This document shows positions 4,309 through 63,151 of a stretch of 64,000 nt of DNA, in pieces. The notes below the pieces were generated by a model. The model was not told the DNA's origin and did no database searches. It worked only from the letters and a program-made list of their open reading frames with translations. The first letter of the stretch is position 1. Every line of letters begins with the position of its first letter. The stretch covers positions 7,392 to 71,391 of the forward strand of contig JACPAL010000011.1 in assembly GCA_016180855.1 (NCBI GenBank), given 5' to 3'. Made by a program: the position numbers and the translations under genes. The DNA is from Deltaproteobacteria bacterium (lineage in GTDB: Bacteria > UBA10199 > JACPAL01).

Positions 4309-5343
4309 TTAGGCGATCTGTTGCTGTGTGACACAATGCACCCCCCCAAAACCGCGGACGAGATCCTTCGAGGGGATCTTGGCGATCCTCCTCCCGGGAA
4401 AGAAATTTTTCAAGAGCCGAATTGCCTCATCATCCCTCGGGCTGTCGAAAGAGGGAAGAAGGACGACACCATTCCCAATATAGAAATTGGCGTAGGAGGC
4501 CGGCAGCAGACCGCTATCTGACTCAATAGGGGAGGGGGTTGGCAGGGGGATGACGGTCAGAGGACGCCCCTCTTCGCTCTTCATCTCTTGCAGGGTGGCA
4601 TAGTTCTCTCTGAGCAGCTCGTAGTTTGGGGCTTGCGGATCGTTTTCAAGCGGGGCGACGATCGTTGTTGGGTTCACGAATCGGACCAGGTTATCGATGT
4701 GGCCGTCCGTATCATCACCGGAAGGAGTCCCGGCAGGAAGCCAGAGGATGTTGTCGACTCCTAGAAAACTTTTAAGAATTTTTTCGATCTGCCCTTTTTT
4801 GAGATTCGGGTTTCTTTTGGGATGAAGCAGGCAGGATTCTGTTGTGATTAAGGTTCCGCACCCGTTGGTTTCGATCGATCCCCCCTCCAGAACGATGCCG
4901 GGCCGGAAAAAGGGAAGGGGGACCATTTTTTCGGCAATCCGCGAGGAGACGAGCGCATCCTCGTCCCAAGGGGGCCATTTTTCACCCCACGAATTGAAGA
5001 TCCAGCCAATAAGACCAACCTCGGAACCTTTTTTGATAAAAGTCGGTCCTGTATCCCGGAGCCAGCAATCGTTTGTCGGTATCTCATGGAGCCGGACTCT
5101 ACGAAAATTGATATCCGCCTTTTCCAACCTCTCCTGGACCTCCTTTTTCATGGAGGCGTCGTTAACGAGCAGCTGAACGGCCTCGTCGGTATGAAGTGCC
5201 TTGATCATCTGAATCCAGATTGAGGGGACGAACTTCTGGCGTCCCTGCCAGGTCTCGGCATTGTGCGGCCAAGCGAGCCAAGTGGCAGCGTGGGGTTCCC
5301 ATTCGGCAGGCATGTGAAAACATTGGTCTACGGTTGTTAGCAT
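4309..5343 (-). CDS. aguA: agmatine deiminase
   Basis: 344 aa. FHMPAEWEPHAATWLAWPH N-terminus and C-terminal catalytic-Cys context GGVHCVTQQQ, as in the agmatine deiminase / PAD_porph family. Confidence 0.9.
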   Translation of the reverse strand: MLTTVDQCFHMPAEWEPHAATWLAWPHNAETWQGRQKFVPSIWIQMIKALHTDEAVQLLVNDASMKKEVQERLEKADINFRRVRLHEIPTNDCWLRDTGPTFIKKGSEVGLIGWIFNSWGEKWPPWDEDALVSSRIAEKMVPLPFFRPGIVLEGGSIETNGCGTLITTESCLLHPKRNPNLKKGQIEKILKSFLGVDNILWLPAGTPSGDDTDGHIDNLVRFVNPTTIVAPLENDPQAPNYELLRENYATLQEMKSEEGRPLTVIPLPTPSPIESDSGLLPASYANFYIGNGVVLLPSFDSPRDDEAIRLLKNFFPGRRIAKIPSKDLVRGFGGVHCVTQQQIA

Positions 5344-5384
5344 CTCTTCCTCACATAACGCCCCCTTCCACTGTTTTCACGAGA

Positions 5385-5436: not shown

Positions 5437-6315
5437 TTAACATTCCTTTAAGAAGGGCCAATCCTTGCGGACCTCGTTAATCCTTGAGAGGTCACATTCG
5501 GTAGTGACAACCTCTTCCTTCTCGGGGCTTCCCTTTACTAAAACCCTTCCCATGGGATCCACAACAAATGAACTCCCCCAGAATTCAATGTGGTCTTCCT
5601 TGCCAACCCGATTCGTTGCAGCGATAAAGACGCCATTGGCAATCGCATGACCCCTTTGGATCGTGATCCAGGCGTCCAATTCATCTTCCCCCTCACCCCC
5701 GACCCCCCTCCCGCGTGGTGGAGAGGGGAGGGAATAACCAATAGCTGTAGGATAAAAAATGATCTGTGCCCCTGCCTTGGCCAACGCCCGTGCCCCCTCA
5801 GGGAACCACTGATCGTAACAGACCTGGAGGCCGATTCGGCCATAAGGCGACTCAAAAACGGGGGTGCCGGTATCACCGGGTGAAAAATAGAACGATTCCC
5901 CATAGTAGTTTTTAAGATCATTCGGGATGTGGATCTTTCGGTACTTTCCGATAAATTGGCCGTCCGTATTAAACAAAACGGCGGTGTTGAAATACCCCTC
6001 TCCTGATTTCTCAAAGAGTGAACCAACTAGGACGATTTTATGGCGTTTTGCGAGGGAGGAGAGGGCCTCGGAGGTTGGCCCAGGGATCGCCTCCGCGAGC
6101 TTGAAATGGGCCCGGTTTTCCCTCTGGCAGAAATATTCGGTTCGAAACAGCTCCTGAAGAGAGACAATCTGGGCCCCTCTTTGGACCGCCTCCCCAATCC
6201 CCTGGGCCGCTTTTTTGAGGTTTTCCTCGGGGTAGGGGGAGCAGGGGTGTTGGACGAGGCCAACGATCACCCTTTGCCCGCCTGCCTCGTTGTTTTTGGA
6301 GGTCTTGTTTCTCAT
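5437..6315 (-). CDS. aguB: N-carbamoylputrescine amidase (nitrilase/CN-hydrolase superfamily)
   Basis: 292 aa. Catalytic Cys context GLQVCYDQWFPE and FYPTAIG. Adjacent to aguA and near speA. Confidence 0.88.
   Translation of the reverse strand: MRNKTSKNNEAGGQRVIVGLVQHPCSPYPEENLKKAAQGIGEAVQRGAQIVSLQELFRTEYFCQRENRAHFKLAEAIPGPTSEALSSLAKRHKIVLVGSLFEKSGEGYFNTAVLFNTDGQFIGKYRKIHIPNDLKNYYGESFYFSPGDTGTPVFESPYGRIGLQVCYDQWFPEGARALAKAGAQIIFYPTAIGYSLPSPPRGRGVGGEGEDELDAWITIQRGHAIANGVFIAATNRVGKEDHIEFWGSSFVVDPMGRVLVKGSPEKEEVVTTECDLSRINEVRKDWPFLKEC
5688..5732 (+). repeat. C-run/G-run element, degenerate copy (B) inside the aguB CDS
   Basis: CCCCCTCACCCCC-GA-CCCCCCTCCCGCGTGGTGGAGAGGGGAGGG. Only a 6-bp CCCTCC/GGAGGG stem pairs cleanly. 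Translated on the minus strand as PSPPRGRGVGGEGE. Confidence 0.55.
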
Positions 6316-14034: not shown

Positions 14035-15167
14035 CAGATTCGATTCTCCTTCATGAGGTTGATAAATCTTTCAAAGAGATAATGGGCATCATGCGGCCCC
14101 GGTGACGCCTCAGGATGGTATTGGACGGAAAAAACCGGCAGGTCGGTCAGTCGCATCCCTTCCACTGTCTTGTCGTTTAAATTGATATGGGTCAGTTCGG
14201 CCTTACCCTTCAGTGAATCGGTGTCGACTGCAAAACCGTGGTTTTGTGCGGTAATCTCCACCTTTCTTGTCGTGAGGTCCATAACAGGCTGATTCCCACC
14301 GTGATGACCGAACTTGAGCTTGTAGGTCTTCCCCCCAAGGGCGAGTCCCAATAGCTGGTGCCCCAGGCAGATTCCAAAGAGGGGAACTTTCCCCAGGAGT
14401 GATCGGATTGTTTTAACGGCGTAGGTGACCGGCTCCGGATCGCCCGGTCCGTTGGAGAGAAAGACCCCGTCCGGTCTCTTTTTGAGGACCTCTTCTGCTG
14501 GCGTGGAGGCAGGGACAACGGTGACATGGCATCCGGCATCAACGAGATTTCTGAGGATGTTCTGCTTGATGCCGAAGTCGTAGGCGATGACATGTATCCC
14601 CCCCTCACCCCCCCTTAAACGGGGGGAGAGACTCCACACCCCCTTTGTCCACCGATACGGCCTCTTACAGGTCACCTCTTTCACGAGGTCCCGACCAACC
14701 ATTTTGGGAGCCAACCGGACCTCTCTCAAAAGTTTTTTTGTATTGAGTTCTTTTGTGGAAATAATCCCCATTTTGGAACCGTAGTCCCGCAGATGTCTCG
14801 TCAGTTTTCTCGTATCGATCCCTTCAATCGCAAGAATCTTATTCTTCTTGAGATAAGATCCCAACTCCTCTCTTGCCCGGAAGTTTGACGGGACCGGGTT
14901 ATAGTGCCGAACGACAAACCCTTCAACAAAGGGATGTGAGGACTCGACATCCTCCGTATTGACCCCGTAATTACCGATCTCCGGATAGGTCATGACGACG
15001 ATCTGGCCCTTATAGGATGGGTCCGTCAGAATCTCCTGGTAGCCGGTCATGCTCGTGTTGAAAACGATCTCGCCAATCGCCTCACCTGCATGACCGAAGG
15101 AACGTCCCTCAAAAACGAGACCATCTTCCAATACAAGCAGGCTCCTAAACTTTCCCATTTGAGGCAT
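14034..15167 (-). CDS. carA: carbamoyl-phosphate synthase small (glutaminase) subunit
   Basis: GATase catalytic GICLGHQLL and [12 protein letters not shown]. The ORF opens at TTG 15188, but GGGAGGAGAGG precedes the ATG at 15167 ([16 protein letters not shown]). Confidence 0.95.
14598..14630 (+). repeat. C-run/G-run element, short form (C) inside the carA CDS
   Basis: CCCCCCCTCACCCCCCC-TTAAAC-GGGGGGAGAG, a 6-bp G:C stem with a 6-nt loop. Translated on the minus strand as [10 protein letters not shown] in the inter-domain linker just before HVIAYDFG. Confidence 0.6.
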
Positions 15168-18074: not shown

Positions 18075-18110
18075 ATCAATGGTGCTATCAATGGTGCCAG
18101 GCACGTCTGG
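18075..18110. repeat. left inverted repeat of the RayT unit
   Basis: ATCAATGGTGCTATCAATGGTGCCAGGCACGTCTGG. Its reverse complement, CCAGACGTGCCTGGCACCATTGAT..GCACCATTGAT, matches the right repeat. Confidence 0.65.
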
Positions 18111-18913: not shown

Positions 18914-18955
18914 CCATGCGTGCCTGGCACCATCGTTTTCGTGTGGCACCATTGC
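18914..18955. repeat. right inverted repeat of the RayT unit
   Basis: CCATGCGTGCCTGGCACCATCGTTTTCGTGTGGCACCATTGC. Ends 3 nt before the hemH stop codon. Confidence 0.65.
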
Positions 18956-24818: not shown

Positions 24819-25592
24819 ATGCGGCACCGTATGAAGCTCGGTGCCGTCAGCTACCTCAATGCACTTCCGCTTGTTCATTATCTCGCAGAGAGACCGCGTC
24901 TGGCCCCTCCTGCCGCCCTCGACAGGTTACTCCGAATCGGTGAAGTTGAGCTTGCCACGGCGCCCGTTGTAACACTTTGCGAAAATCCTTCCTGGAAGGT
25001 TGTTCCGGGGATCGCAATCGCGACCCGGTCAACGGCCAAGAGTGTCCGGCTGATTTTCAAAAAACAGGGAATAACTCTCGGAGATCTTCGCTCTATTTCC
25101 CTCGATCTGGAATCAAAAACCTCCAATCTCCTCCTCAAGGTTCTCCTGCATTACAAGTACAGACGAAGGCTTGAGGATATTCACTTTTATTATCCCCTTC
25201 CCTCTTCCGATGCCGACGCTGCCCTGTTCATTGGTGATAAGGCACTTAAGGAGGAATATCGCTCACTGGAAGGGCTTGATCTGGGTGGAGAATGGACCTC
25301 CTGGACAGGACTCCCGTTTGTCTTTGCCGCCTGGATCGGATCTGCTCCGGAGATTTCGGAAAAACAGGTCCAAATCTTGAGAGAGGCACGTGATCGGGCC
25401 CTCACAAATCTTGGGGAACTTGCCAAACAACAGTCCGTTCTCCCGGAGCTGGAGGCAAAACGATACCTTTCCGAAAATATTTCCTATGAATTTGAAGGGG
25501 CTGAGATTGAGGGGCTTCAGCGGTTTTGTGCCTATGCCCACGAATTGGGCTTAATCCAGAATGACTTTCAACTCTCTTTTTACCTTAAGTGA
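24819..25592 (+). CDS. mqnA: chorismate dehydratase MqnA (futalosine pathway)
   Basis: KLGAVSYLNALPLVHYL N-terminus and ~250-aa length, as in the MqnA/MqnD (VitK2_biosynth) family. The alternative ATG at 24831 lies in a hairpin loop. Confidence 0.8.
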   Translation: MRHRMKLGAVSYLNALPLVHYLAERPRLAPPAALDRLLRIGEVELATAPVVTLCENPSWKVVPGIAIATRSTAKSVRLIFKKQGITLGDLRSISLDLESKTSNLLLKVLLHYKYRRRLEDIHFYYPLPSSDADAALFIGDKALKEEYRSLEGLDLGGEWTSWTGLPFVFAAWIGSAPEISEKQVQILREARDRALTNLGELAKQQSVLPELEAKRYLSENISYEFEGAEIEGLQRFCAYAHELGLIQNDFQLSFYLK

Positions 25593-26859
25593 AAAACAGC
25601 AGATCCCTCTCGAGGCGGTTCTCAAGTCGGACCTGCTGAGACTTGGGGTCTCATTTTCCCGAGAGGCCCTTAAAACATCCCAGGATCAAAAACCGAAATC
25701 GTATTTTATCTTTTCCTTTGATCGAGTTTCTCAAAAAGAGCTTTCTGAGATGGAAAAAAGGGGGGCCCCGGAAGAGATCGCCTTGGTTGGAGGGCCGTAT
25801 AATTTGAAGAGAACGATTGTTTCTGTCAGGCTAAATCCAAACTCGCCATATCGAATTGAGGCCTCACCCCCTCCACTCCCCCTCTCCTTAGTAAGGAGAG
25901 GGGGACAGGGGGAGAGATATGAGAAAATCTCTGATATCATTCTCCCAACATCTCCCTCCTACTACAAAACCGCTCTTCAATCGGGCAAACCGGTGGCCGA
26001 CATTGCCCCGACGATTGAATGGGGGTATCTGATCTATCTGACCACCTTTCGTCTCTGCCAATACTGGGGCGAAAAGGAGGAGTGCCAGTTTTGCGACATC
26101 AACAACAATTACCGTCAGCAAAAAGGGGAGCGCTCCTACACCTCGATCAAGGAGCCTGATGAGGTTGTTGAGGCGCTGGCTATTATACAAAAAATGGATA
26201 CAGACGGAATCAGTCAGGCCTACACCGTTTCCGGAGGCGCTATTACCAAAGATCTGTACGGTCTTCGCGAGGCGGAATTTTATGCCCGGTATGCCCAGGT
26301 AATCGAAAAAAATTTTCCGGGACGCTGGATCGGTAAGGCGAATGTCCAGGCATTGCCGGAGGAAGAGGTAAAGATCCTAAAAAAAGCGGGCTACCAAATT
26401 TATCACCCAAACTACGAGGTATGGGATAAAGAGCTTTTCAAAAGACTCTGCCCGGGCAAGGAAAAACTCATTGGGCAGGAGGAATGGATTCATCGCATTC
26501 TGTCAGCGGCCGAGATTTTTGGGGCCCCCCATGTGATCCCTAATTTTGTGGCAGGGATCGAGATGTCGAAACCGTACGGCTTTCAAACGGTCGATGAGGC
26601 GGTTGATTCAACGGCTGAAGGGCTCGATTTTTTCATGTCCAAAGGGATTTTACCGCGATTTACCGTTTGGTGCGTCGAACCAAATACAATCCTCTCACAA
26701 ACCAACAACGAACCCCCTCCCCTTGAATATTTCGTGAAACTGCTTCGGGTTTATCGTGAGACCTTCAAACGGTACAGACTCCCCCCCCCTCGTGGCTACG
26801 GTGAACCGGGTCTTGGAAAGGCCGTTTTTTCCGTCAGTCCGTTTATGGATGTGATTTAA
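25561..26859 (+). CDS. radical-SAM-like protein with non-canonical Cys spacing (function unknown)
   Basis: 432 aa. Cys cluster is C-QYWGEKEE-C-QF-C (Cx8Cx2C), followed by a TVSGG motif and TIM-barrel-like alternation. Overlaps the mqnA 3' end by 32 nt. Confidence 0.5.
   Translation: MTFNSLFTLSEKQQIPLEAVLKSDLLRLGVSFSREALKTSQDQKPKSYFIFSFDRVSQKELSEMEKRGAPEEIALVGGPYNLKRTIVSVRLNPNSPYRIEASPPPLPLSLVRRGGQGERYEKISDIILPTSPSYYKTALQSGKPVADIAPTIEWGYLIYLTTFRLCQYWGEKEECQFCDINNNYRQQKGERSYTSIKEPDEVVEALAIIQKMDTDGISQAYTVSGGAITKDLYGLREAEFYARYAQVIEKNFPGRWIGKANVQALPEEEVKILKKAGYQIYHPNYEVWDKELFKRLCPGKEKLIGQEEWIHRILSAAEIFGAPHVIPNFVAGIEMSKPYGFQTVDEAVDSTAEGLDFFMSKGILPRFTVWCVEPNTILSQTNNEPPPLEYFVKLLRVYRETFKRYRLPPPRGYGEPGLGKAVFSVSPFMDVI
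25862..25916 (+). repeat. C-run/G-run element, short form (D), perfect palindrome inside a CDS
   Basis: CCTCACCCCC-TCCACT-CCCCCTCTCCTTA(25878-25890)-G-TAAGGAGAGGGGG(25892-25904)-ACAGGGGGAGAG. The stem is a perfect 13 bp. Translated as SPPPLPLSLVRRGGQGER. Confidence 0.75.
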
Positions 26860-26884
26860 GAAATATTTCTTCCTGAAAATTATT

Positions 26885-27904
26885 TCATTTGATGGGTAAG
26901 GAAGCACGCTTTACCGGCTGAATTCCGACCTTTCTCACCCAATTCAATACCTTTTCGACATTCTGTTCAATCCTGGCACCGGCGAGCTGGGTCACCTGAT
27001 CCTCGAGCGGGATGTCAAAGTCATGGGCCCCTGAAAGGAGTGCCTCGGGTCCCTTGTCATATTGGGTCAAAAAAGAGGCCCGGATAACCGGGATGTTATC
27101 GAGGTAGAGACGGCTGATCGCGAGCGTCCGGAGATAATCATCATTCCCTGTGACACGTCCCCCAAGCGCTGTGTTGTCGGGCTGATAGGTCCATAAAAGA
27201 AAGCTGGAAAATCCACCCGTCCTCTCTTGAAGAGTACGAATCTTTCTCAAATGTTCCACCCGATCCCTTGGTGTTTCGCCAAATCCGATCACCATTGTCG
27301 CTGTCGTCCCAAACCCAAGACGCTGGGCCAGCTCCATTCCATCGAGATATTCCTTCACGGTATATTTTTTGGGTGAAAGTTTTTTGCGCCATTCGTCCGT
27401 GAGAATCTCGGCCCCACCTCCGGGGATCCAACGAAGTCCTGATCCCTTGAGACGTACCAATGTCTCTTCCAAAGAGATCCGGGAGGCACGAGCGATAAAA
27501 ATCACCTCAACAATCGTCGGACCGTAGATTTCAATTGTCTCCCCATATTTTTGCCGAACAGAGTAAAACAGGTCCTCATAGTGATCAACCTTGAGTTTTG
27601 GATTAAATCCCCCTTCCATCGCTACGAGACCGCCACCAACCGATTTTAACTCGTCGATCTTGGAAAAGATCTGCTCTTTTGAGAGGACGTATCCTTCCGG
27701 GTGATTGGGGCGGCGGTAAAAGGCACAGTAACTGCAGTCAGCGACACAAACATTCGTGTAACTGATAATCCGCATGATGATGTAGCTCGCCTGACTGCCC
27801 GGATAATAAAGAGACCGTCTCTTATGGGCCTCGGCCCTTAAGTCCCCCAGATTCTCCTTCCAGAGATCAAGCGCCTCTGCCTCGGTGAGACGTTGTTTTG
27901 TCAT
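26885..27904 (-). CDS. MqnC/MqnE-family radical SAM enzyme (cyclic dehypoxanthinyl futalosine synthase or aminofutalosine synthase)
   Basis: 339 aa. TNVCVADCSYCAFYRR (CxxxCxxC followed by AF) as in the CofH/MqnC/MqnE family. I cannot separate C from E by eye. Confidence 0.8.
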   Translation of the reverse strand: MTKQRLTEAEALDLWKENLGDLRAEAHKRRSLYYPGSQASYIIMRIISYTNVCVADCSYCAFYRRPNHPEGYVLSKEQIFSKIDELKSVGGGLVAMEGGFNPKLKVDHYEDLFYSVRQKYGETIEIYGPTIVEVIFIARASRISLEETLVRLKGSGLRWIPGGGAEILTDEWRKKLSPKKYTVKEYLDGMELAQRLGFGTTATMVIGFGETPRDRVEHLRKIRTLQERTGGFSSFLLWTYQPDNTALGGRVTGNDDYLRTLAISRLYLDNIPVIRASFLTQYDKGPEALLSGAHDFDIPLEDQVTQLAGARIEQNVEKVLNWVRKVGIQPVKRASLPIK

Positions 27905-30728: not shown

Positions 30729-32182
30729 CGCATTTTGTCCAATTTCTTGAGGAACGCGGCGAACTCTGCCGGCTCAGAGAACCGGTACGGGCCGAATTGG
30801 AAATTACGGAAATTACGGATCGCACCACCAAGGCCGGTGGCCCTGCCCTTCTGTTTGAGAATGTTATCAAGACGAATGGGGAAAGATCCAAATTTCCACT
30901 CCTGATTAATACCTATGGGACCTGGAAGCGAATGGCCTGGGCCTTAGGGGTTGAAGAGATCGAGGAGATTGCTCGAGAGATCGAGGAGATTCTGAAGAGC
31001 CAACCCCCTTCCGGTCTCTGGGACAAGCTCAAGATGCTCCCGAAGTTGGCCAAATTTGGCAGTTTTCTTCCGAAGGGAGTCTCTCAGGGGGTCTGTCAAG
31101 AGGTCGTCCTTTCCGGGCCGGATCTATCAATCCTTCCCTACCTCAAATGTTGGCCCGGTGATGGGGGACCGTATATCACCTTTCCCCTTGTGATCACCAA
31201 AGATCCTGACACGGGCATCCGTAACGTTGGCACCTATCGGATGCAGGTCTTTGACAAAAAAACAACCGGCATGCATTGGCAGGTCCACAAAACGGGTGCC
31301 AGGCACGCGCAGAGATATTGGGAATTAAAGAAGAAAATTCCTGTTGCGGTCTGTCTGGGGGGAGATCCGGCGTATGGCTATTCCGCAACAGCGCCCCTAC
31401 CGGACGGTGTCGATGAACTGATCTTGGCCGGCTTCATACGGAAAAAAGGGGTAGAGCTTGTCCGCTGTAAAACAATCGATATGGAGGTACCCGCCGACTG
31501 CGATTTTGTCATTGAGGGATACGTCGATCCGATGGAACCATTGGTTAAAGAGGGCCCATTTGGCGACCATACCGGCTACTACTCGCTCGCTGACAACTAT
31601 CCGCTCTTTCATGTCACGGCGATCACCCACCGCAAGGAGCCCATTTACTCCACGACCATCGTCGGTCCACCGATTCAGGAGGACGGTTTTCTTGGAAAGG
31701 CAAGTGAGAGAATCTTCATGCCCTTAATCCGGATGAATTTTCCGGAGATCCGCGATCTTTGTGTCCCGATCGAGACCTGCTTTCACAATCTCGCCATTGT
31801 TTCGATCAAAAAACAATACCCGGGTCATGCCAAGAAGATCATGCACTCGATCTGGGGAACGGGTCAGATGATGTTTTCAAAATGTATCATTGTTGTTGAT
31901 GAGGATGTGAATGTCCAAAATCTCACAGAGGTGGCCTGGCGTGTTTCCAATAACATCGATGCCAAACGCGATATCCTGTTTGCTGAGGGGCCGGTCGACG
32001 CCTTGGACCATGCCGCTCCCCAGTTTGCCTATGGATCAAAAATGGGGATCGACGCGACCCGAAAGTGGAGGGAAGAGGGATTTGAACGGGACTGGCCCGA
32101 GGTGCTTAAGATGAGGGAGGATGTAAAAAAACGAGTCAATGAGATATGGGAGAACTTAGAGATTATAAAGAGGGGGAAGTGA
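30713..32182 (+). CDS. UbiD-family decarboxylase (menaquinone-type, SCO4490-like)
   Basis: 489 aa. N-terminus FVQFLEERGELCRLREPV and GPFGDHTGYYS motif. TTG start. Followed by ubiE/ubiX/ubiA homologues. Confidence 0.9.
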   Translation: MYPSLTHFVQFLEERGELCRLREPVRAELEITEITDRTTKAGGPALLFENVIKTNGERSKFPLLINTYGTWKRMAWALGVEEIEEIAREIEEILKSQPPSGLWDKLKMLPKLAKFGSFLPKGVSQGVCQEVVLSGPDLSILPYLKCWPGDGGPYITFPLVITKDPDTGIRNVGTYRMQVFDKKTTGMHWQVHKTGARHAQRYWELKKKIPVAVCLGGDPAYGYSATAPLPDGVDELILAGFIRKKGVELVRCKTIDMEVPADCDFVIEGYVDPMEPLVKEGPFGDHTGYYSLADNYPLFHVTAITHRKEPIYSTTIVGPPIQEDGFLGKASERIFMPLIRMNFPEIRDLCVPIETCFHNLAIVSIKKQYPGHAKKIMHSIWGTGQMMFSKCIIVVDEDVNVQNLTEVAWRVSNNIDAKRDILFAEGPVDALDHAAPQFAYGSKMGIDATRKWREEGFERDWPEVLKMREDVKKRVNEIWENLEIIKRGK

Positions 32183-32880
32183 TTTCCGTGAAGATCGATA
32201 AGGGGGAGATACAGGGCCTCTTTTCCTCCATTGCCCCTCAATATGACCTCCTCAACACTGTCTTAAGTTTCGGCACTGACCGTCTTTGGCGTAAATGTGG
32301 GGTCTCCTTTCTAAAAGAGAGCCATCAGGTTCTTGATCTTTGCGCCGGCACATTGGCTCTCACGAGGGAACTCTTAAAGATCAATCCTTCTGTCTCCATC
32401 ACAGCGACTGATTTTTCTGAACCGATGCTTCGGGAGGGACAGAAAAAATTACAACGGGATGAACACCAAAGAGTCTCTCTCGAATGCTCTGATTTTTTTA
32501 AATTTGTTCGACCCCCTGCTACCTTTGATGCGGCGATGTGTGCCTATGGGTTCAGAAATTTAGAGGATAATACCAAGGCCCTCAAAAGGATCCATCACCT
32601 TTTAAAACCAGGAGGTCGTCTCTTGATTCTCGAATTCTTTCGGCCTGACAGATGGTATACCTGGATCTTTCATTATACCTATGCGCAGTTCCTTATTCCC
32701 CTGATCGGTTGGCTTGTCTCCCGGCATCAAGGGGCCTACAAGCACCTTCGAGACTCGGTCAGGGGCTTTTACACCCTTGACCAATATATCCAGTTGTTGA
32801 GAAAAACAGGCTTTGAAATAAAGAAGGCAAAGAGGCTGACGGGAGGGATCTCAGGATTGATTGTTGGGGAGAAAATATGA
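32179..32880 (+). CDS. menG: demethylmenaquinone / ubiquinone C-methyltransferase (UbiE/MenG family)
   Basis: FSSIAPQYDLLNTVLSFGTDRLWRK, VLDLCAGT, LKPGGRLLILEF. GTG 32179 overlaps the UbiD-like TGA (GTGA) and follows GAGGGGG. The ORF track opens at 32146. Confidence 0.88.
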   Translation: MISVKIDKGEIQGLFSSIAPQYDLLNTVLSFGTDRLWRKCGVSFLKESHQVLDLCAGTLALTRELLKINPSVSITATDFSEPMLREGQKKLQRDEHQRVSLECSDFFKFVRPPATFDAAMCAYGFRNLEDNTKALKRIHHLLKPGGRLLILEFFRPDRWYTWIFHYTYAQFLIPLIGWLVSRHQGAYKHLRDSVRGFYTLDQYIQLLRKTGFEIKKAKRLTGGISGLIVGEKI

Positions 32881-33440
32881 AAATCGTTATCGGAATCAGC
32901 GGTGCGAGCGGCGCCATTTACGCAAAGAGTCTGCTCGATTTTCTAAAAGGAACTCCTCATGAGGTTTATGTGACCGCCTCGGAGAATGCCATCGAGATAG
33001 GGCGTGAGGAGTGCGGTGTTGATTATCGTGAGTATGATTTTCGCTACTATGGCTACCGCGATTTCTCGGCCCCTTTTGCGAGTGGCTCTGCGAAGTTTGA
33101 TCAACTGGTCGTGATTCCATGCAGCATGGGAATCCTGGGGAGGATTGCCCATGGCTATTCGGACGATCTTCTCTCACGAACAGCCGATGTCTTCTTTAAG
33201 GAAAGAAAAAAGGTGATCCTTGTACCGAGGGAGACCCCTTTGAGTCTTATCCATATTGAGAACATGAAACTCGTGACACTCTCGGGGGCCGTTGTTCTCC
33301 CGGCTATTCCCTCCTTCTACAGCAAGCCTCAAACGATCCAGCAGGCGGTTGATACGGTCATCGCACGGGTACTCGACCATATGGGGATCGAAAATGATTT
33401 GAGGAAGAGATGGGGATCACCCCCTCACCCACAAAGATGA
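32877..33440 (+). CDS. ubiX: flavin prenyltransferase UbiX
   Basis: MKIVIGISGASGAIYA and PCSMGILGRIAHG. ATGA overlap with menG. The last ~7 codons and the stop are encoded by repeat copy G. Confidence 0.92.
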   Translation: MKIVIGISGASGAIYAKSLLDFLKGTPHEVYVTASENAIEIGREECGVDYREYDFRYYGYRDFSAPFASGSAKFDQLVVIPCSMGILGRIAHGYSDDLLSRTADVFFKERKKVILVPRETPLSLIHIENMKLVTLSGAVVLPAIPSFYSKPQTIQQAVDTVIARVLDHMGIENDLRKRWGSPPHPQR

Positions 33441-33478
33441 CAACCATAACAAATCCCCTCTCCCACGGGTGGAGAGGG
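33421..33478 (+). repeat. C-run/G-run element, long form (G)
   Basis: CCCCTCACCC(33421-30)-24 nt-CCCCTCTCCC(33455-64)-ACGGGT-GGAGAGGG(33471-78). The spacer carries AAGATGA, which supplies the ubiX stop and the ubiA-like start. Confidence 0.75.
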
Positions 33479-34321
33479 CTAATTAACATATTTTCATTGA
33501 TCAAATTCTCCCACACAATTTTTGCCCTCCCGTTTGCCTTATCCTCGATGCTTGTCGCAGCAAGCGGTATTCCGCCCCTTCGAACCATTCTTTTCATCAT
33601 AATTGGTATGGTCGCCGGACGGACGGCCGGAATCGCCTTTAATCGCTATCTGGACGCCGAAATCGATGCTAAAAATCCCCGCACGGCCCTGCGCGAGATC
33701 CCGCGCGGGGTCATTTCAAAAAGATTTGCCTTAATCCTTTCTTTCACCTCTTCAGCAATGCTTCTCCTGGTCGCCTTTCAACTGAACTCTCTCTGTTTTT
33801 ATCTTTCGCCACTCGCCCTTTTTCTCCTCTACTTCTATTCCTTCACCAAGCGATTGACAGACTGGTCCCACCTTTTCGTCGGTCTTGTTCTTGGTATCAC
33901 CCCGATCGCCTCCTGGATTGCCGTTACAGGCTCATGGAGCTGGATTCCTTTTATTTTGGGCCTTGGGGTGACGTTCTGGGTCGCTGGATTTGATATTATT
34001 TATGCAACCCAGGATGAGGAGTTTGATCGAAGGGAGGGACTGCACTCACTCGTTGTTCGGTTGGGGCTCCCCAAGGCGCTTTGGATCGCCCGTCTCTTTC
34101 ACGGATTGACCCTTCTCTCTTTCATCGCTTTTGGTTATCTCGTACTTGATACGACCGCTCTCCCCTATTGGTTAGCCCTCTCCCTCTGTGGATTTTTGCT
34201 CTTCTATGAGCACCGTCTCGTCAAACCGACGGATCTTTCCCATGTCAACGCCGCCTTTTTCAACATGAATGGCACTATCGCAATTATTTTTTTTGCAGGG
34301 GTTGCGGTGTCGATATTGTAG
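33437..34321 (+). CDS. UbiA-family aromatic prenyltransferase (menaquinone-type, SCO4491-like)
   Basis: NRYLDAEIDAKNPRT and DIIYATQDEEFD Asp-rich motifs, with ~8 TM helices. The ORF opens at 33410. The ATG at 33437 overlaps the ubiX TGA. Confidence 0.85.
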   Translation: MTTITNPLSHGWRGLINIFSLIKFSHTIFALPFALSSMLVAASGIPPLRTILFIIIGMVAGRTAGIAFNRYLDAEIDAKNPRTALREIPRGVISKRFALILSFTSSAMLLLVAFQLNSLCFYLSPLALFLLYFYSFTKRLTDWSHLFVGLVLGITPIASWIAVTGSWSWIPFILGLGVTFWVAGFDIIYATQDEEFDRREGLHSLVVRLGLPKALWIARLFHGLTLLSFIAFGYLVLDTTALPYWLALSLCGFLLFYEHRLVKPTDLSHVNAAFFNMNGTIAIIFFAGVAVSIL

Positions 34322-34323
34322 CT

Positions 34324-34380
34324 CCCCTCACCCTTAAAGGTGATAACAGGCACATATCCCCTCTCCCCTGCGGGAGAGGG
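34324..34380 (+). repeat. C-run/G-run element, long form (F)
   Basis: CCCCTCACCC(34324-33)-24 nt-CCCCTCTCCC, with a perfect 9-bp stem CCCTCTCCC(34359-67)/GGGAGAGGG(34372-80) and loop CTGC. Starts 3 nt after the ubiA-like stop. Confidence 0.75.
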
Positions 34381-34381
34381 C

Positions 34382-34412
34382 AAAAAAAGAGGCAGGACTA
34401 CTGTCCTGCCTC
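34382..34412 (-). terminator. rho-independent terminator of the minus-strand envelope operon
   Basis: 10-bp stem GAGGCAGGAC(34389-98)/GTCCTGCCTC(34403-12) with loop TACT. On the minus strand it is followed by T7 (A7 at 34382-88). Confidence 0.75.
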
Positions 34413-34439
34413 CAAAATTCCTTTCCAGGAATTTGTTAT

Positions 34440-37400
34440 TTACCTGATTAAGGAACAGCCGCTGATGCCGAGCCTTCTTTCAAGCCGTGACATATCCGGT
34501 TCACCGAAGGTATGCGGTGAGAGCGGACTCGTCTCACCCTCTTTAGGCTCAAAGGCGCCGTTCTTGTTCTTGTCTTCCTGGCCATCGTGGAGACCGTCGT
34601 TGTCGGTGTCTTCATCACAAGGATGCGTCTCACCAAACTCTTTCACACCGATCCCCTGAGTGATCTCATTGATCGCCTCTTCAATACCCTCCGCATACTT
34701 TTTACCGATGTCCGTAAATTGGCCGTTGCCGTTCAGATCCTCAAGGTTATCCGAAATCCCATCGAGATCGGAATCGGCAAGATATCCGGAGGTCTCCGGG
34801 TTTCCACCATTCCCATCGGCACGGCAGGGACCTGTTAAAGGAACCGACTGGCCGTTGACAGAGGCATCCCAGAGGCCGTCATGATCTCTATCCTCGATAT
34901 TATCAGGGATTGTATCACCGTCGGAATCCGCCTTCTTTGGATCAAGCTCGCCCAAATCAACCCGACCGTTCTGATTGTAATCCTCAACACCATCCGAAAT
35001 ACCATCACCATCGGTATCGGTATAACGCGGATCAGTCTCGTTCGTATCCTTCACGCCATTGCGGTTGATATCTTCGATACCGTCAAGGATTCCGTCATCA
35101 TCCGTATCTGAATCGAATCGGTCCGTCTCACCACTGGCGGATGTCCTCAGGCAGTCATTATCGAGGTCCTCTTTCACGTCCGGGATAAAATCACCGTCTG
35201 AGTCCTTGAGGGCCCCTGGATCCCGCCCATTTCCTTCAATGCACTGACTTCTGGCGCACTCCAGTTCTTCATTAGAGGCATCCGGTCGCCCATCCGCGTT
35301 TCGCGAAAAGAGGAGGCCCGGATCAGTTGCCTGACAACCATCGACCTTATCATTGATCCCGTCACCGTCCGAATCACGGAGGAACGGATTTGTATCCCAA
35401 GGCTCCGTTTCACCTGTTACATTCTCACTTTCACCGAAATAGTGACAGTTCTGGTTCCGGTCTTCTTCAACGTCCTTCAGACCGTCACCATCGGAGTCTT
35501 TGCCGTCCACATATTGATTTGCGATACAACGTCGGACGCAATAAATATCCGAACTCCACGGGCAGGCATCCTCGTCATCCCGCATCCCGTCCCCATCCGT
35601 GTCGCGGAGGAACGGATTCGACTCAAATTCATCGAGCGAACAGTTGCCGTTGGAGTCTTCTTGAACATTCGGAATCCCGTCCCGATCAGAGTCTTCCTTG
35701 CCATCAGCACCCGCCCAGATCGGATGGGCACTGTCTGGCACGCAGTGATTGAAGGGACCTGCATTGCCACCAATGTTGTCGTAACCGCAGAAGGTGATGT
35801 CCTCCATATCCTGTGTTGCATTGGGGACGCCGGGACACTGATCTTCCCCATCACTAAATCCGTCACCATCAGTATCCGGGTCAAACGGATCGAGATGCAG
35901 GATGTTCAGGTCCGCATTGTCCGGGTTCGCCTGACAATCCTGATCCGGATCCTCATGAATGTCGGTAATCCCATCGTCATCGGTATCAACACCGGCCGTA
36001 TGTTTAAACCGGATCCGATCGGGGAACGACCGGTCACAGTAAAAGCGCCGGCAGTCGGGATAACCAACCTCTGAGGGCGCAAAGTGGGGGCACTCATCAA
36101 TCGAATCAATACCGGTGGAAGGTCCACCCCCTTCATAACGAAGTGCGGCATCACCATCGGTATCACTATTCCTCCAGTCCGTTTCACGACTCGCCTCACC
36201 CTCCTCCGGACGATTATACAGGCAGTTGTCATCGAGATCCTCTTCGCCGTCACAAAGATTATCATCGTCATAATCGGCGCACTGCTCGTTCACATTCGCT
36301 CGACGTCTTGCCACCTGGGTTGCGGGGTTTGTCTCTGCACTGAGGACCGTTGGGGCACCTGGAACGCAGACACCATCACACGTGGCCGTTGCATCAAGGG
36401 GGCAGGCATCGTGCCCATCCGCCTTACCATCTCCATTGCCCGTTGCGGCGTACTGAACGACAACATAGCTGTAGTTTTGTCCTGCCGCGTTTTGGACACG
36501 AACACGCGCCATACCACTCCCAAGATTCTCAATAACCTCTCCTTCCAGGGCCGGAGCTGTCTTTGGTTTTAGCTTGGTGGAGCCAGAACCGCCTCCAATA
36601 GCTACACGCGCTGTATCTGAATGATCAAAATACGGGTCAGATTCCAAGAGATTTGGCGCCTCCGCCTCGCCCTGGATTCTGCAATCCTTGCTCGCGTCTT
36701 CCACAAGGTCAGGACGCCCGTCGTTATCGGTGTCGGTACTCGCCGCGAGTTTATTCATCACCTCGGGGCGGCAGAGCTTTCTCACACAACGGACATCTCC
36801 ATTGGGATCACCGATCGGATTTCCAGGACTTCCCTCATAAGGACAGATATCTTGTGCCGGATCGTCTGGGAGGCCGTCATCGTCAGAGTCCGGATCATAA
36901 GGATCGGTCTCTTGCCAGGCGTAGGGATTGTCATCCTTTAAACAACGGGAGTCCCAAACGAGTTTGCCATTCACGTCCCCATTCACCTCTCCGTCACAAT
37001 TTTCCCTTGAATCGTTGACACCATCATTGTCGGCGTCGAGATCATTGCCGTTATTGAGTTCATCCCCATCGCAGTTAAAGGGATCGGCCGCTGTGGGACA
37101 GCGGAAACCGTTCCTCACATCCTGGGACAACCCGGCAATCGTATCGGGTCCATCCTCCGCACCGATTTCAATGACATAGGCATTATGGGCTGCATCCGAT
37201 TTGAAAATTTCATACAAGTCTCCGATCCCATCACCGTCGGTATCTTTAGGGTCCGGATGACTAGACTCCTCACGAACGCCCGAAGAGGTTTCAAACGCAT
37301 CGGTCACGCAGTTGACGTTGACATCCTCTTCCCAGTTATACAGTTTATCCCCGTCACAGTCATGCTGGGTATGGTAACTGAAGCCACCGGGGCCATCGTC

Positions 37401-57996: not shown

Positions 57997-59592
57997 ATGA
58001 GCATTCGGGGATTCAAAAAAAGACTCAAGGTCGGAATCATTGACCTGATCGCTAAACAGCCGACAAAATCAATTTACGCCCGGATCGTCAATCCCAATTA
58101 CACCTCACTCATGCCGCAGGTCGTTGCAGTTTGGGCAGAGCAACTGGGACACGAGGTCCACTACCTCACATTTACCGGATTTGAGGATCTTCAGCATGAT
58201 GTCCCTCAGGAAGTGGACGTCCTTTTTATCAGCACTTTTACCCAGAATGCCCTGACCGCCTACAGTATTTCTGACATCTTCAGAAAACGGGGGATTGTAA
58301 CCGTTTTGGGAGGCCCCCATGCCCGTGCCTATGCGGAGGATGCTCTCTTTCATTTTGATTACGTTTTGGGACTAACCGATCGTGACCTGATCCAAAATCT
58401 TCTCGAGGATCCTGCACCACAAAAAGAGATTGGGGTCCATTTGAGTGCCCCGGGCCAGGTCAAGTCGGTACCCGGGATACGGGAACGCTGGAAGTTCCTA
58501 GAACAAAACTTGAAAAAGACGCGGATCGTGCACGTCGTGCCGATGATTGGGAGCTTGGGGTGTCCCTATACCTGCAGCTTCTGCATTGATTCCAAGATTG
58601 ATTATCTACCCCTCCCCTACGATCAAATCCGTGAAGACCTGGATTTCCTGCAAAAGATGCCGAAGCCGCCGACGGTCGCCTGGTACGATCCGAATTTCGG
58701 GGTCCGATTTGACGACTATCTCAATATCATCGAGTCAACGGTCCCACCCGGCCGGATGGCGTTTGGCGGGGAAAGCAGTCTCTCGCTCTTGAGTGAAGCA
58801 AACCTCAAGCGTCTTAAAAAGAATAATTTTATTGTGATGCTGCCCGGAATTGAGTCCTGGTTTGATTTTAATGGCAAATCAAAACAACAGAAGAATTTTG
58901 GTCTCGACAAGGTCAAACCGATCGCCGAGCATATTAATCTTGTCATGCAATACATCCCCTATGTGCAGACCAATTTTCTGTTTGGTCTCGACACGGATGA
59001 GGGTCCCGCCCCTTTTGAACTGACCAAGAAATTTGTCGATCTCTCTCCCGGAGTCTATCCGAATTTTGCAATGCTGACCTCTTTCGGCAATTCGGCCCCG
59101 TTAAACAAAAAATTTCAGGAGGAAGGGAGGATCATCGACATCCCGTTCCCGTTCCTTGACGGCAATGCCGGATTAAACGTTCGTCCGAAAAATTATGGCC
59201 TGGTTGAGTTTTACGACCACTATCTGGATCTGGTGAGGTATTCTTACTCCCCTGAAAAGATCTGGAAACGTTTCAAGGCAAACAAGCATCCGCTTCCTCG
59301 CTGGATGAACCTCTTGCGCGCCACATTTTCAGGTAAGGGAAACCGGGGCAACTATTTTCAGGTAAGGGAGCGACTCGCCAAGGAGCCTGAATTTCATGAT
59401 TTTTATGCCGGGGCCAGCATCAAGCCCCCGCCCTACTTTCGGGATCAAATCCGGAAAAATTTGGGCGTTTTTTACGATCACCTTCCGCAGAGGGTCGTCA
59501 ATTATCTCCATCACGGAGAGCCGGCTCCAAACCCCAGAATTTCGAACGCCCTGCCGACCATTTATCCGATGGAACAGGCAGCCGCTTCCTGA
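57997..59592 (+). CDS. B12-binding-domain radical SAM protein
   Basis: 531 aa. N-terminal Rossmann-like region (DVLFISTFTQNALTAYS..TVLGGPHA), then GCPYTCSFC (CxxxCxxC). Confidence 0.8.
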   Translation: MSIRGFKKRLKVGIIDLIAKQPTKSIYARIVNPNYTSLMPQVVAVWAEQLGHEVHYLTFTGFEDLQHDVPQEVDVLFISTFTQNALTAYSISDIFRKRGIVTVLGGPHARAYAEDALFHFDYVLGLTDRDLIQNLLEDPAPQKEIGVHLSAPGQVKSVPGIRERWKFLEQNLKKTRIVHVVPMIGSLGCPYTCSFCIDSKIDYLPLPYDQIREDLDFLQKMPKPPTVAWYDPNFGVRFDDYLNIIESTVPPGRMAFGGESSLSLLSEANLKRLKKNNFIVMLPGIESWFDFNGKSKQQKNFGLDKVKPIAEHINLVMQYIPYVQTNFLFGLDTDEGPAPFELTKKFVDLSPGVYPNFAMLTSFGNSAPLNKKFQEEGRIIDIPFPFLDGNAGLNVRPKNYGLVEFYDHYLDLVRYSYSPEKIWKRFKANKHPLPRWMNLLRATFSGKGNRGNYFQVRERLAKEPEFHDFYAGASIKPPPYFRDQIRKNLGVFYDHLPQRVVNYLHHGEPAPNPRISNALPTIYPMEQAAAS

Positions 59593-61630: not shown

Positions 61631-63063
61631 ACAGTCCACTCATTCACCGGTCTCCCTGATTCCTGCCTCTCAAAATAAGCGGCGGTCAGGGCCCTAAAGT
61701 CCCGACCATGTTTTTCCACAAACCGTCTTTGCCAACCTGCCCCCGTTTGTCCCGATCGCACCCTCTCCGCAAGGACCCCGTCCAGATAATAATTAACCGT
61801 GTCGGGGGGGAGTTGATAAAGGAGCAACCCTTTTTTTGCAAGCGGAAGGAGTTCCAAAACAAGATCTCTCACCGAAACAAATCGCTCCTTCCTCCATTCC
61901 AGTTCAGCCGCCAGTCCCAGCTCTGCCGCACGATAAAAATTGGCCCGTGCCTTCGAAAATGGAATCTCCCTCTCCCATGCAATCGCCTCCCACTTCATCC
62001 CTTTAAGAAGACCGATAAAAAAGAGACAGTTGGCCATCATGTCGACAACGGTCGGACCGGACGGCATCACACGATGTTCAAGGCGGAGTTTGATCTTTCC
62101 ATCCTTCATGATTCGGATTTGAGGTCGATTCCACCGCCAGATTGTTCCATTATGAAGAAGAAGATGCTTGAACGCCTCTTTCGGCTCTTTAAAGGAGACC
62201 GGAAGGATCGCTGGAAATCGCTCACAGTTTTCCTGAAAAAATTCCAGGAAGGAGTTTTGAAGATAGTCGGAACCAAAAGAAACACGCCCCACCCATTCGT
62301 TGTCCTGATTGGTAAAAAAGCCGGTCACGACCGCCTGTTCAAAAAGGGGGATCCGCGTCTCCTCCCACAAATCCTTTTCTAAAAAATAAGGGGAGTTCGC
62401 TGACAGAGCGACCATCGGTGCTGAAAGAATTTGAGCCAAATTGAAAGAGCGGACCGCCTCCTCCGGGTTCAGATCAAGATGCAGGTGGAGTGCCGAAGTG
62501 GCCGAAACAAACATGATATTCCGCTGCATTCGGGCCAACGATTCTTTCCCCTGGATATTAAGTGGCATTGGTTTCTTGGCGCGCAAATGCATCACCTGTT
62601 CCGCCAAGGCCCTGTAGCGGTGGGAGGAGGTCATTTGATCACTCGCAAGATCGTGATCCGTCAGTGTCGGAAGGATCCCGGTCATGAGAAAAAGGGAACC
62701 CACCTCACTGGCACGTTTGGAAAACATCTGCTTCATCCGATTCATTTCATTCTCTAACTCTTTTACAACTCCTTGGCCAAGGAGATGAGGCTGGCTTTGA
62801 AACTCCACATTATAACGACCCAATTCGGGGGAGGATTCCAGCGGGTCTAGAACCTTCAAAAACTCCTCATTATGGGGAGAGGGGGAAAAATCAGTCGGAT
62901 GACAAAGCCATCCCTCTATTTCAAAGGCGACCTGACGATCATCCGAAGAGACCTCACCCCGATGAACCTTTTCAATCAACAACTCCGTCTCTTCTTTTAA
63001 GTGTAATTGAAAGAGCTGAAAATCGGTCTCTGAAAAACGGCTTTTGCCAATTTCGATTCCCAA
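61627..63063 (-). CDS. GCS2-family carboxylate-amine ligase (glutamate-cysteine-ligase-like)
   Basis: 478 aa. ALHLHLD and LSANSPYFLEKDLWEETRIPLF, typical of the GCS2/YbdK family. TTG start preceded by GGGTGAGGGAG, which is supplied by repeat copy H. Confidence 0.75.
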   Translation of the reverse strand: MGIEIGKSRFSETDFQLFQLHLKEETELLIEKVHRGEVSSDDRQVAFEIEGWLCHPTDFSPSPHNEEFLKVLDPLESSPELGRYNVEFQSQPHLLGQGVVKELENEMNRMKQMFSKRASEVGSLFLMTGILPTLTDHDLASDQMTSSHRYRALAEQVMHLRAKKPMPLNIQGKESLARMQRNIMFVSATSALHLHLDLNPEEAVRSFNLAQILSAPMVALSANSPYFLEKDLWEETRIPLFEQAVVTGFFTNQDNEWVGRVSFGSDYLQNSFLEFFQENCERFPAILPVSFKEPKEAFKHLLLHNGTIWRWNRPQIRIMKDGKIKLRLEHRVMPSGPTVVDMMANCLFFIGLLKGMKWEAIAWEREIPFSKARANFYRAAELGLAAELEWRKERFVSVRDLVLELLPLAKKGLLLYQLPPDTVNYYLDGVLAERVRSGQTGAGWQRRFVEKHGRDFRALTAAYFERQESGRPVNEWTV

Positions 63064-63069
63064 GGTTCT

Positions 63070-63151
63070 CCCTCACCCACCACTGAAATTATTATAGCCG
63101 TTCCCCTCTCCCGCCCTTCAGCATGGCTCAGGGCAGGCCAAGGGGAGAGGG
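63070..63151 (+). repeat. C-run/G-run element, long form (H)
   Basis: CCCTCACCC(63070-78)-24 nt-CCCCTCTCCC(63103-12)-29-nt loop with inner GCCCT/AGGGC stem-GGGGAGAGGG(63142-51). Spans the ABC ATPase stop and the ligase SD. Confidence 0.7.

Follow-up and report, generated by a model that had tools for sequence, protein, structure and literature searches.

What are the short palindromic elements that stand at both ends of a UbiA-like (MqnP-type) prenyltransferase gene, here called ubiA, in the 64-kb stretch of Deltaproteobacteria bacterium contig JACPAL010000011.1 (assembly GCA_016180855.1) that we analysed as a single window? A preliminary description had seen in them a structured repeat of no described class with an invariant 24-nt spacer, and had suggested, among other possibilities, that they bound a mobile cassette. 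Comparison with published motifs and with related genomes indicates that the long forms found in the window are very probably a local long-loop subfamily of the dispersed repeat known as BoxC, PIT or TM_ECO, individual copies of which have come to lie at gene junctions and within genes.

Architecture and family identity of the elements

Three long-form copies share the architecture CCCTCACCC-N24-CCCCTCTCCC-loop-GGAGAGGG, at the positions and with the 24-nt spacer that had been described (Table 1). A pattern search confirmed this, the exact N24 pattern matching the window twice and none of 100 shuffles, and the third copy carries the deviant box 1 that had been claimed for it, TCCCTCACCC. Copies 1 and 2 are in direct orientation with a spacing of 903 bp. 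The boxes are invariant across the long forms and the spacers are 29–63% identical. By shuffling, the likeness noted earlier between the first two spacers was upheld (15 of 24 positions, where 14 had been counted; P ~4e-4) but does not extend to spacer 3, which matches them at 10/24 and 7/24 positions, neither value being significant. The window spacers are AT-rich (29–33% GC) and unstructured on folding, and when both strands of the three long forms were folded the hairpin between boxes 2 and 3 (hairpin 2) was the sole structure in common, with no fold shared by the spacers.

A relaxed scan for the three-box element, with one mismatch allowed per box, finds five copies in the window, compared with two matches in total over 30 Markov controls (about 0.07 per control), in agreement with the earlier view that this is a genuine structured repeat family. 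The C-rich strand is the plus strand in all five. The GC skew of the plus strand is negative throughout the window; if this skew reflects the direction of replication, the G-rich, triplex-capable strand of these five copies may be the lagging-strand template.

Read as their reverse complement, the window elements show the blocks and the block order of the Escherichia coli BoxC/PIT/TM_ECO motif. On the minus strand all three long forms read CCCTCTCC(C/A)...GGGAGAGGG...GGGTGAGGG, and the E. coli copy in the hrpB-mrcB spacer, read directly, is CCCTCACCC-TAA-CCCTCTCCC-TCAA-GGGAGAGGG, with boxes identical to those of the window. In copies 1–3, nine of nine third-strand triads are of the allowed purine-motif types (G.G, A.A, T.A). 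The same three boxes in the same order thus place the elements in a class that has been described, contrary to the first impression (PMC4666352). That motif was first named BoxC (Bergler 1992) and then PIT, for potential intrastrand triplex (Hoyne & Maher 2000, 2002), and its TM_ECO pattern is CCCTCNCCC-N3-6-GGGNGAGGG-N3-GGGNGAGGG (Holder et al. 2015, PMC4666352). E. coli MG1655 has 23 copies, intergenic without exception, and 262 proteobacterial genomes hold 3610; no connection with known mobile elements, phages or plasmids was reported, and the sites of the motif show raised local variability, chiefly small deletions (PMC4666352).

Published limits for loop 2, the counterpart of our spacer, are 3 nt in TM_ECO, 1–6 nt in the ITxF searches and 0–10 nt in the work of Hoyne et al. 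(PMC4666352). At 24 nt, loop 2 of all three long forms falls outside these limits; loop 1, for which TM_ECO gives 3–6 nt, measures 4 nt in copy 2, 6 nt with an 8-bp stem in copy 1 and 30 nt in copy 3. On the G-rich strand the order is CCCTCTCCC, loop 1, GGGAGAGGG, loop 2, GGGTGAGGG, i.e. three blocks of 9–10 nt, and this strand, when single, could fold as a hairpin plus third strand, a purine-motif intrastrand triplex, with a loop 2 of 24 nt instead of the usual 3–4 nt. The elements would be non-coding, non-autonomous and probably selfish or neutral insertions, which may persist where the harm is small, in junctions between genes and in protein loops that tolerate them. Rfam gave no match over the whole window at gathering thresholds, and at E<=1 over 33350-34450 it gave mir-320 alone, a meaningless hit; a tRNA/tmRNA scan of the window found none. 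Our search of the literature found nothing on the BoxC-type motif later than 2015.

Table 1. Repeat copies, their parts and associated features of the window
Feature	Position	Strand	Remarks
Long-form copy 1	33421..33478	+	Triplex-capable G-rich strand is the minus strand
Copy 1, first parts	33421-30; 33422-33430; 33431-33454	+	Starts CCCCTCACCC; box 1 CCCTCACCC; spacer
Copy 1, further parts	33455-33464; 33465-33470; 33471-33478	+	Box 2 CCCCTCTCCC; loop ACGGGT; box 3 GGAGAGGG
Long-form copy 2	34324..34380	+	Perfect 9-bp stem, CTGC loop; in the 118-bp gap between the convergent ubiA/mqnP and 1031-aa genes
Long-form copy 3	63070..63151	+	Hairpin 2 with a 30-nt loop, itself partly paired
Short-form copy	5689..5732	+	Spacer 4-5 nt; inside the CN_hydrolase gene 5437..6315(-)
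Short-form copy	25862..25912	+	Spacer 8-10 nt; in frame in the variant radical-SAM gene 25561..26859(+)
ubiX-family flavin prenyltransferase gene	32877..33440	+	Last 7 codons (SPPHPQR) and TGA from copy 1
UbiA-like (MqnP-type) prenyltransferase gene	33410..34321	+	Residues 4-23 encoded by copy 1
Intrinsic terminator of the 1031-aa gene	34388..34413	-	11-bp stem and T7; not part of the repeat
RAYT-like, IS200-like Y1 transposase gene, 245 aa	18137-18874	-	HuH and NPVRAG motifs; Pfam Y1_Tnp 1.6e-16

The upstream copy at the ubiX-ubiA junction

Copies 1 and 2 enclose the last gene of an operon that encodes an aminofutalosine-deaminase-like amidohydrolase, a UbiD-type menaquinone decarboxylase (TIGR03701, 635 bits), a UbiE-type methyltransferase, UbiX and the UbiA-like prenyltransferase. 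These are late futalosine-pathway menaquinone genes, and a minus-strand gene of 1031 amino acids converges on them.

The preliminary description was correct in that the upstream copy supplies the stop of ubiX, whose open reading frame (ORF) ends with TGA at 33438-40 within spacer 1, and also in its reading of the hairpin, NPLSHGWRG when translated in the ubiA frame. It had also taken ATG 33437 as the first ATG of that frame, so that the element would provide the start of ubiA as well. The first of these two points did not stand and the second is probably wrong: the ORF begins at ATG 33410, which has a Shine-Dalgarno-like GAGGA ahead of it, is conserved as an ATGGGG start in two relatives (contigs L004 and L005) and in a sister strain (contig L249), and is used by the strain that lacks ATG 33437; no Shine-Dalgarno sequence was found before ATG 33437. 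Judged by its conservation, ATG 33410 is probably the ancestral start, and ATG 33437, within an ATGA motif, is a possible secondary one.

In L004 and L005 the ATGGGG start of ubiA overlaps the end of ubiX by 13–16 nt (...RWGS-stop and ...RWGKK-stop), and UbiX ends in relatives as ...RWGS, ...RWGKK or ...RWG. Ahead of the conserved SLIKFSH, UbiA homologues have 8–13 residues and the window protein has 28. Removal of the 60 nt from 33419 to 33478 restores a ubiX that ends ...RKRWGS-TAA together with the ubiA start MGILINIFSLIKFSH (MGILINIF...), both with the lengths seen in L005. Because these restored ends match those of relatives, the most plausible reading of copy 1 is that it was inserted in frame just behind codon 3 of ubiA, in the short overlap with ubiX that is typical of relatives, and the probable inserted segment is 33419-33478. 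As by-products of such an insertion UbiX would have gained a 6-residue tail and a new stop from the spacer, and the prenyltransferase 20 N-terminal residues before its first conserved helix, while the ATGA of the spacer may offer a start for re-initiation. Comparison with the L249 allele and with relatives revealed no target-site duplication or terminal inverted repeats at copy 1. As spacers 1 and 2 are mutually closest, one of these two copies may have been copied locally from the other.

Strain polymorphism

Two sister metagenome-assembled genomes (MAGs) were found, GCA_016202325.1 (contigs L248 and L250) at 97.6–99.4% identity to the window and GCA_016187815.1 (contigs L247 and L249) at 99.2–99.7%. 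L250 has both copies, identical to those of the window, and L249 has copy 2 intact, so that copy 2 is 100% conserved in both sister strains. At the site of copy 1, L249 has ATGGGGCTGAAGTTGAGAGGG; the junction reads ATGGGGCTGAAGTTGAGAGGGCTAATGAAC, which is 48 nt shorter, in frame and with a few substitutions nearby. The encoded protein, MGLKLRGLMNIF..., starts MGLKLRG, and UbiX ends ...RWG-stop. Since ATG 33437 is missing from L249, translation there must start at the conserved ATG.

The same assembly, GCA_016187815.1, has a deletion of about 150 nt (window 62920-63068), one breakpoint of which falls in box 1 of copy 3 at a microhomology, TCCCTC; the deletion removes the 5' end of a GCS2-family ORF. 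It has two further deletions, one of 42 nt (window 33072-33113) that removes the conserved PFASGSAKFDQLVV segment of UbiX and one of 100 nt (window 59019-59118) in a B12-binding-domain gene. At the other locus GCA_016202325.1 is the more distant of the two strains, and it still carries copy 1; this makes loss in GCA_016187815.1 the simpler reading of the copy 1 polymorphism. Taken tentatively, as the evidence comes from one assembly, copy 1 would be dispensable and the elements unstable, and the deletions at copies 1 and 3 agree with published work that connects such motifs with local deletions.

A difference of another kind lies at window 26860-26899, where GCA_016202325.1 (L248 7403-8032) has about 630 bp, with a called minus-strand gene of 157 amino acids, in place of 40 bp.

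Gene order in relatives and the cassette question

The placing of copies 1 and 2 raises the possibility that two direct copies serve as recombination or cassette boundaries, attC-like or akin to miniature inverted-repeat transposable elements (MITEs), that mobilise the prenyltransferase gene. The copies are indeed direct, 903 bp apart and at both gene ends, and their spacers are related (15/24). Outside the species, the closest UbiA homologues share 63–67% identity, and in these relatives no three-box element lies beside ubiA on either side, copy 2 being absent from contigs L002, L004 and L005. The relatives' contigs nevertheless keep the amidohydrolase-ubiD-ubiE-ubiX-ubiA order together with the convergent large gene. 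This speaks against a cassette boundary.

Several other observations point the same way. No integrase was found among the 53 window ORFs scanned against Pfam; copy 1, which has neither target-site duplication nor terminal inverted repeats, has its inverted repeat inside; and the sole transposase-like gene, the RAYT-like one, is flanked by a different repeat. Moreover, with five copies distributed over about 54 gene junctions, we estimate that two would fall on neighbouring junctions by chance about one time in three. The cassette hypothesis was rejected on the synteny in element-free relatives and the lack of an integrase in the 53 ORFs, and that this pair should mobilise the gene strikes us as extremely improbable. 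The best-supported account is that the copies around ubiA are separate copies of a repeat and not cassette ends.

The RAYT-like ORF scores 72.7 bits against the NCBIfam model RayT ('REP-associated tyrosine transposase'), for which the cut-off is 80. Its flanks at 18093-18105 and 18919-18931 are inverted copies of GGTGCCAGGCACG, and more copies lie at 31295 and 20573. GGTGCCAGGCACG represents another REP-like family and has no relation to the three-box element. Mobilisation of the three-box element by the RAYT-like gene was considered and rejected, as the flanking repeats are GGTGCCAGGCACG and not three-box copies. We know of no transposase for BoxC-type motifs.

One relative with 67% UbiA identity (L002, and the same in L003) has a different, nested palindrome, TGTAGGGGCGACC...GGGCAGGC...GCCCCTACA, in the ubiX-ubiA gap (5925-5995) and a short-form three-box copy between ubiE and ubiX (5334-5369). 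The menaquinone operon is repeatedly invaded by small palindromic repeats.

The downstream copy and roles at the RNA or protein level

Copy 2 begins 3 nt past the TAG stop of ubiA and, as had been described, forms a perfect 9-bp stem, here with a 4-nt loop; it folds at -27.3 kcal/mol (z = -3.65). It does not have the form of an intrinsic terminator, being followed on the plus strand by CAAAAAAA with no U-tract, and the scan flags 34388-34413 alone. The promoter and terminator scan yielded nothing attributable to the elements.

The strength of this hairpin, its place 3 nt after the stop and ahead of the terminator of the convergent gene, and the ATGA within spacer 1 are what might be expected if the elements acted at the RNA level, copy 1 tuning ubiX-mqnP coupling through the stop TGA 33438 and re-initiation at ATG 33437, and copy 2 acting as a 3' stabiliser or processing site in the manner of a REP hairpin. 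Several points count against such a role. The Shine-Dalgarno-like GAGGA precedes ATG 33410 and nothing of the kind precedes ATG 33437, and the near-identical strain without most of copy 1 (one assembly) uses the upstream ATG. The elements occur in both orientations with respect to transcription, copy 3 and the 5689 copy being antisense to their genes, and they lack a match in Rfam and, in copy 2, a U-tract on the plus strand. In E. coli, PIT elements reportedly showed no promoter or terminator activity (PMC4666352). A role at the RNA level is possible but unsupported, and we judge it improbable.

A protein that binds the boxes in DNA or RNA, and whose geometry sets the 24-nt spacing, would account for boxes that are perfectly conserved, across phyla as well, beside spacers that have diverged, and for the recurrence of 24 nt in all three local long forms though spacer 3 is unrelated. 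We know of no candidate protein for such binding, which counts against it. Spacer length is highly variable in the family as a whole, copies lie within coding loops and in both orientations, and for the genes that flank the E. coli copies no functional association was found (PMC4666352). Binding sites of this kind are in our estimate very unlikely.

Copies inside other genes

Three of the five window copies overlap genes that are backed by Pfam or by homologue alignments. The copy at 5689-5732 is translated as SLPSPPRGRGVGGEG in the CN_hydrolase gene (Pfam 2.7e-61), in a loop that is 6–9 residues shorter in the PDB homologues 6mg6 and 5h8i. The final 11 codons of an ABC ATPase gene, together with its stop codon, lie in copy 3 on the minus strand, and copy 3 ends 7 nt ahead of the TTG start of the GCS2-family ORF.

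A fourth box, GGGGGAGAG, comes after the radical-SAM copy at 25862-25912. In other MAGs the orthologues L372 (~2560-2640) and L373 (~900-1010), which are about 70% identical, have identical boxes at the same codon, in frame, with a hairpin loop of 6 vs 30 nt and an extra GGGGAGAGG box downstream, and other radical-SAM orthologues are without some 8–9 codons at the site. Either a single in-frame copy is old and has been preserved at the DNA level, or insertion has recurred at this site. On inspection the box sequences have a stop codon in one of the six reading frames, which helps to explain why in-frame copies are tolerated. A carA site (14601-14630) was also considered as a further copy and rejected, as it has no three-box pattern and the CarA linker is not longer than that of E. 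coli.

Spacer length and distribution beyond the window

Among the genome-contig matches listed, the three-box pattern occurs in many phyla (Chloroflexota, Proteobacteria, Acidobacteriota, Planctomycetota, Cyanobacteria, Nitrospirae, candidate phyla and others), and among the matches listed for metagenome contigs and IMG/VR viral contigs it is also common. The spacer is 4 nt in 95 and 5–8 nt in 34 of the 147 genome matches listed, longer ones being scattered and 24 nt occurring in none. A metagenome scan limited to 20–28 nt gave, among the matches listed, 14, 23, 10, 18, 23, 13, 8, 10 and 3 copies for the successive lengths, and the long spacers among these listed matches have a mean of 71% GC and mostly form hairpins. 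The spacer that had been called invariant is thus so for the three local copies alone; 4 nt is commonest in the family and every length from 20 to 28 nt is occupied. A spacer of 24 nt is not a family property, and its presence in both copy 1 and copy 2 is most simply explained by descent.

A long-form subfamily from metagenomes (L127-L246, alignment A5) has spacers mostly of 23–24 nt (range 23–26). These spacers form a GC-rich hairpin, A-CCGGCCGC-NNNN-GCGGCCGG-TCC, and loop 1 has a conserved GCRRTGCG. The 9-bp spacer helix shows compensatory changes at four of nine pairs, and its covariation score was reached by 0 of 500 shuffles. With its two hairpins, this subfamily is a form of the motif that would escape published searches limited to loops of 6 nt or less.

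Among the IMG/VR contigs with the pattern (L251-L330) are, for example, UViG_3300042525_000913 (L292, L274, L287) and UViG_3300044730_001458 (L279, L330). Two IMG/VR contigs have at least seven three-box copies each; the 2015 paper reported no phage or plasmid association.

These distributions bear on a more far-reaching proposal, that the 24-nt-loop form is a separately propagating, coding-tolerant BoxC/triplex subfamily which prefers stop/start junctions and protein loops, remodels termini (a new stop, an in-frame N-terminal peptide, a potential ATGA re-initiation site), is lost by in-frame deletion and has spread horizontally, perhaps by phages. The identical boxes in many phyla and in IMG/VR contigs would then reflect horizontal spread and not independent origin, and the subfamily, if real, would be a cross-phylum analogue of the Rickettsia palindromic elements (RPEs). 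We think this rather unlikely.

Discussion

The identity of the boxes, their order and the triad geometry make membership in the BoxC/PIT/TM_ECO family very probable, and several points weigh against it or against parts of the account built on it. The strict TM_ECO pattern has no match in the window even with two substitutions, for which reason we speak of a long-loop variant and not of a plain member. To our knowledge no triplex with a loop of 24 nt has been demonstrated. The spacer measures exactly 24 nt in each of the three local long forms, and spacer 3 nevertheless has no detectable homology to the other two, a coincidence that makes a constraint on length possible. The change at copy 1 may be a loss or a gain; several substitutions are also present at the L249 junction, and some of the deletions in GCA_016187815.1 could be assembly artefacts. 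The local census covers the 64-kb window and about 6 kb of sister-strain sequence. In E. coli the isolated G-rich strand forms a stable triplex in vitro, formation having been seen for single strands there and not in vivo (PMC4666352).

Within these bounds three things are new here, each of them modest. The first is a long-loop variant of a known repeat. Published definitions, with loops of at most 6–10 nt, miss the long-loop forms, which are abundant in metagenomes and some of which have a covarying loop-2 hairpin. The second is residence in frame within coding sequence, including a case in which two overlapping gene ends appear to have been remodelled at once. BoxC-type motifs within genes can shift start and stop calls, and the one prenyltransferase gene has been given three lengths, 294 amino acids by NCBI, 303 by another pipeline and 287 in the sister strain. 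The third is the occurrence of strain indels at two of the three long-form copies; that these coincide with deletions in one 99.5%-identical assembly gives independent, tentative support to the idea that such motifs are hotspots of local instability.

Comparison with known systems

Like integron attC sites and gene cassettes, copies 1 and 2 are imperfect palindromes in direct orientation at both ends of one gene; unlike them they have no R/L core sites and occur in a window where no integrase was found among 53 ORFs, and the operon context is conserved in repeat-free relatives. From MITEs they differ in that copy 1 has no terminal inverted repeats and no target-site duplication. With the REP/BIME/RAYT system (REPINs) they share the character of short, GC-rich, palindromic, dispersed repeats at gene ends, and the window does contain a RAYT-like gene, but the three-box element lacks a GTAG-type head and does not flank that gene. 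RPEs, attributed to Ogata et al. 2000, are reportedly short palindromic repeats inserted in frame in protein genes, and the likeness is that proteins tolerate the added peptide of either kind in permissive regions; the sequences are unrelated, and RPEs measure about 100–150 bp and are restricted to Rickettsia, whereas the unit of the window measures 40–80 bp and its boxes cross phyla.

The closest system is BoxC/PIT/TM_ECO, and the differences from it lie in the loops, the sites and the host. In the window the AT-rich, unstructured loop 2 measures 24 nt where the known motif has 3 nt, and copy 3 has a loop 1 of 30 nt; three of the five window copies overlap coding sequence, in contrast to those of E. 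coli, which are all intergenic; and the host is an uncultured lineage, named 'Deltaproteobacteria bacterium' by NCBI, and not an enterobacterium. The two have in common the blocks CCCTCACCC, CCCTCTCCC and GGGAGAGGG in one order with a geometry of hairpin plus third strand, a dispersed, multi-copy occurrence in which stems are steadier than loops, and an association with small deletions, which in near-identical strains here lie at or beside two of the three long-form copies.

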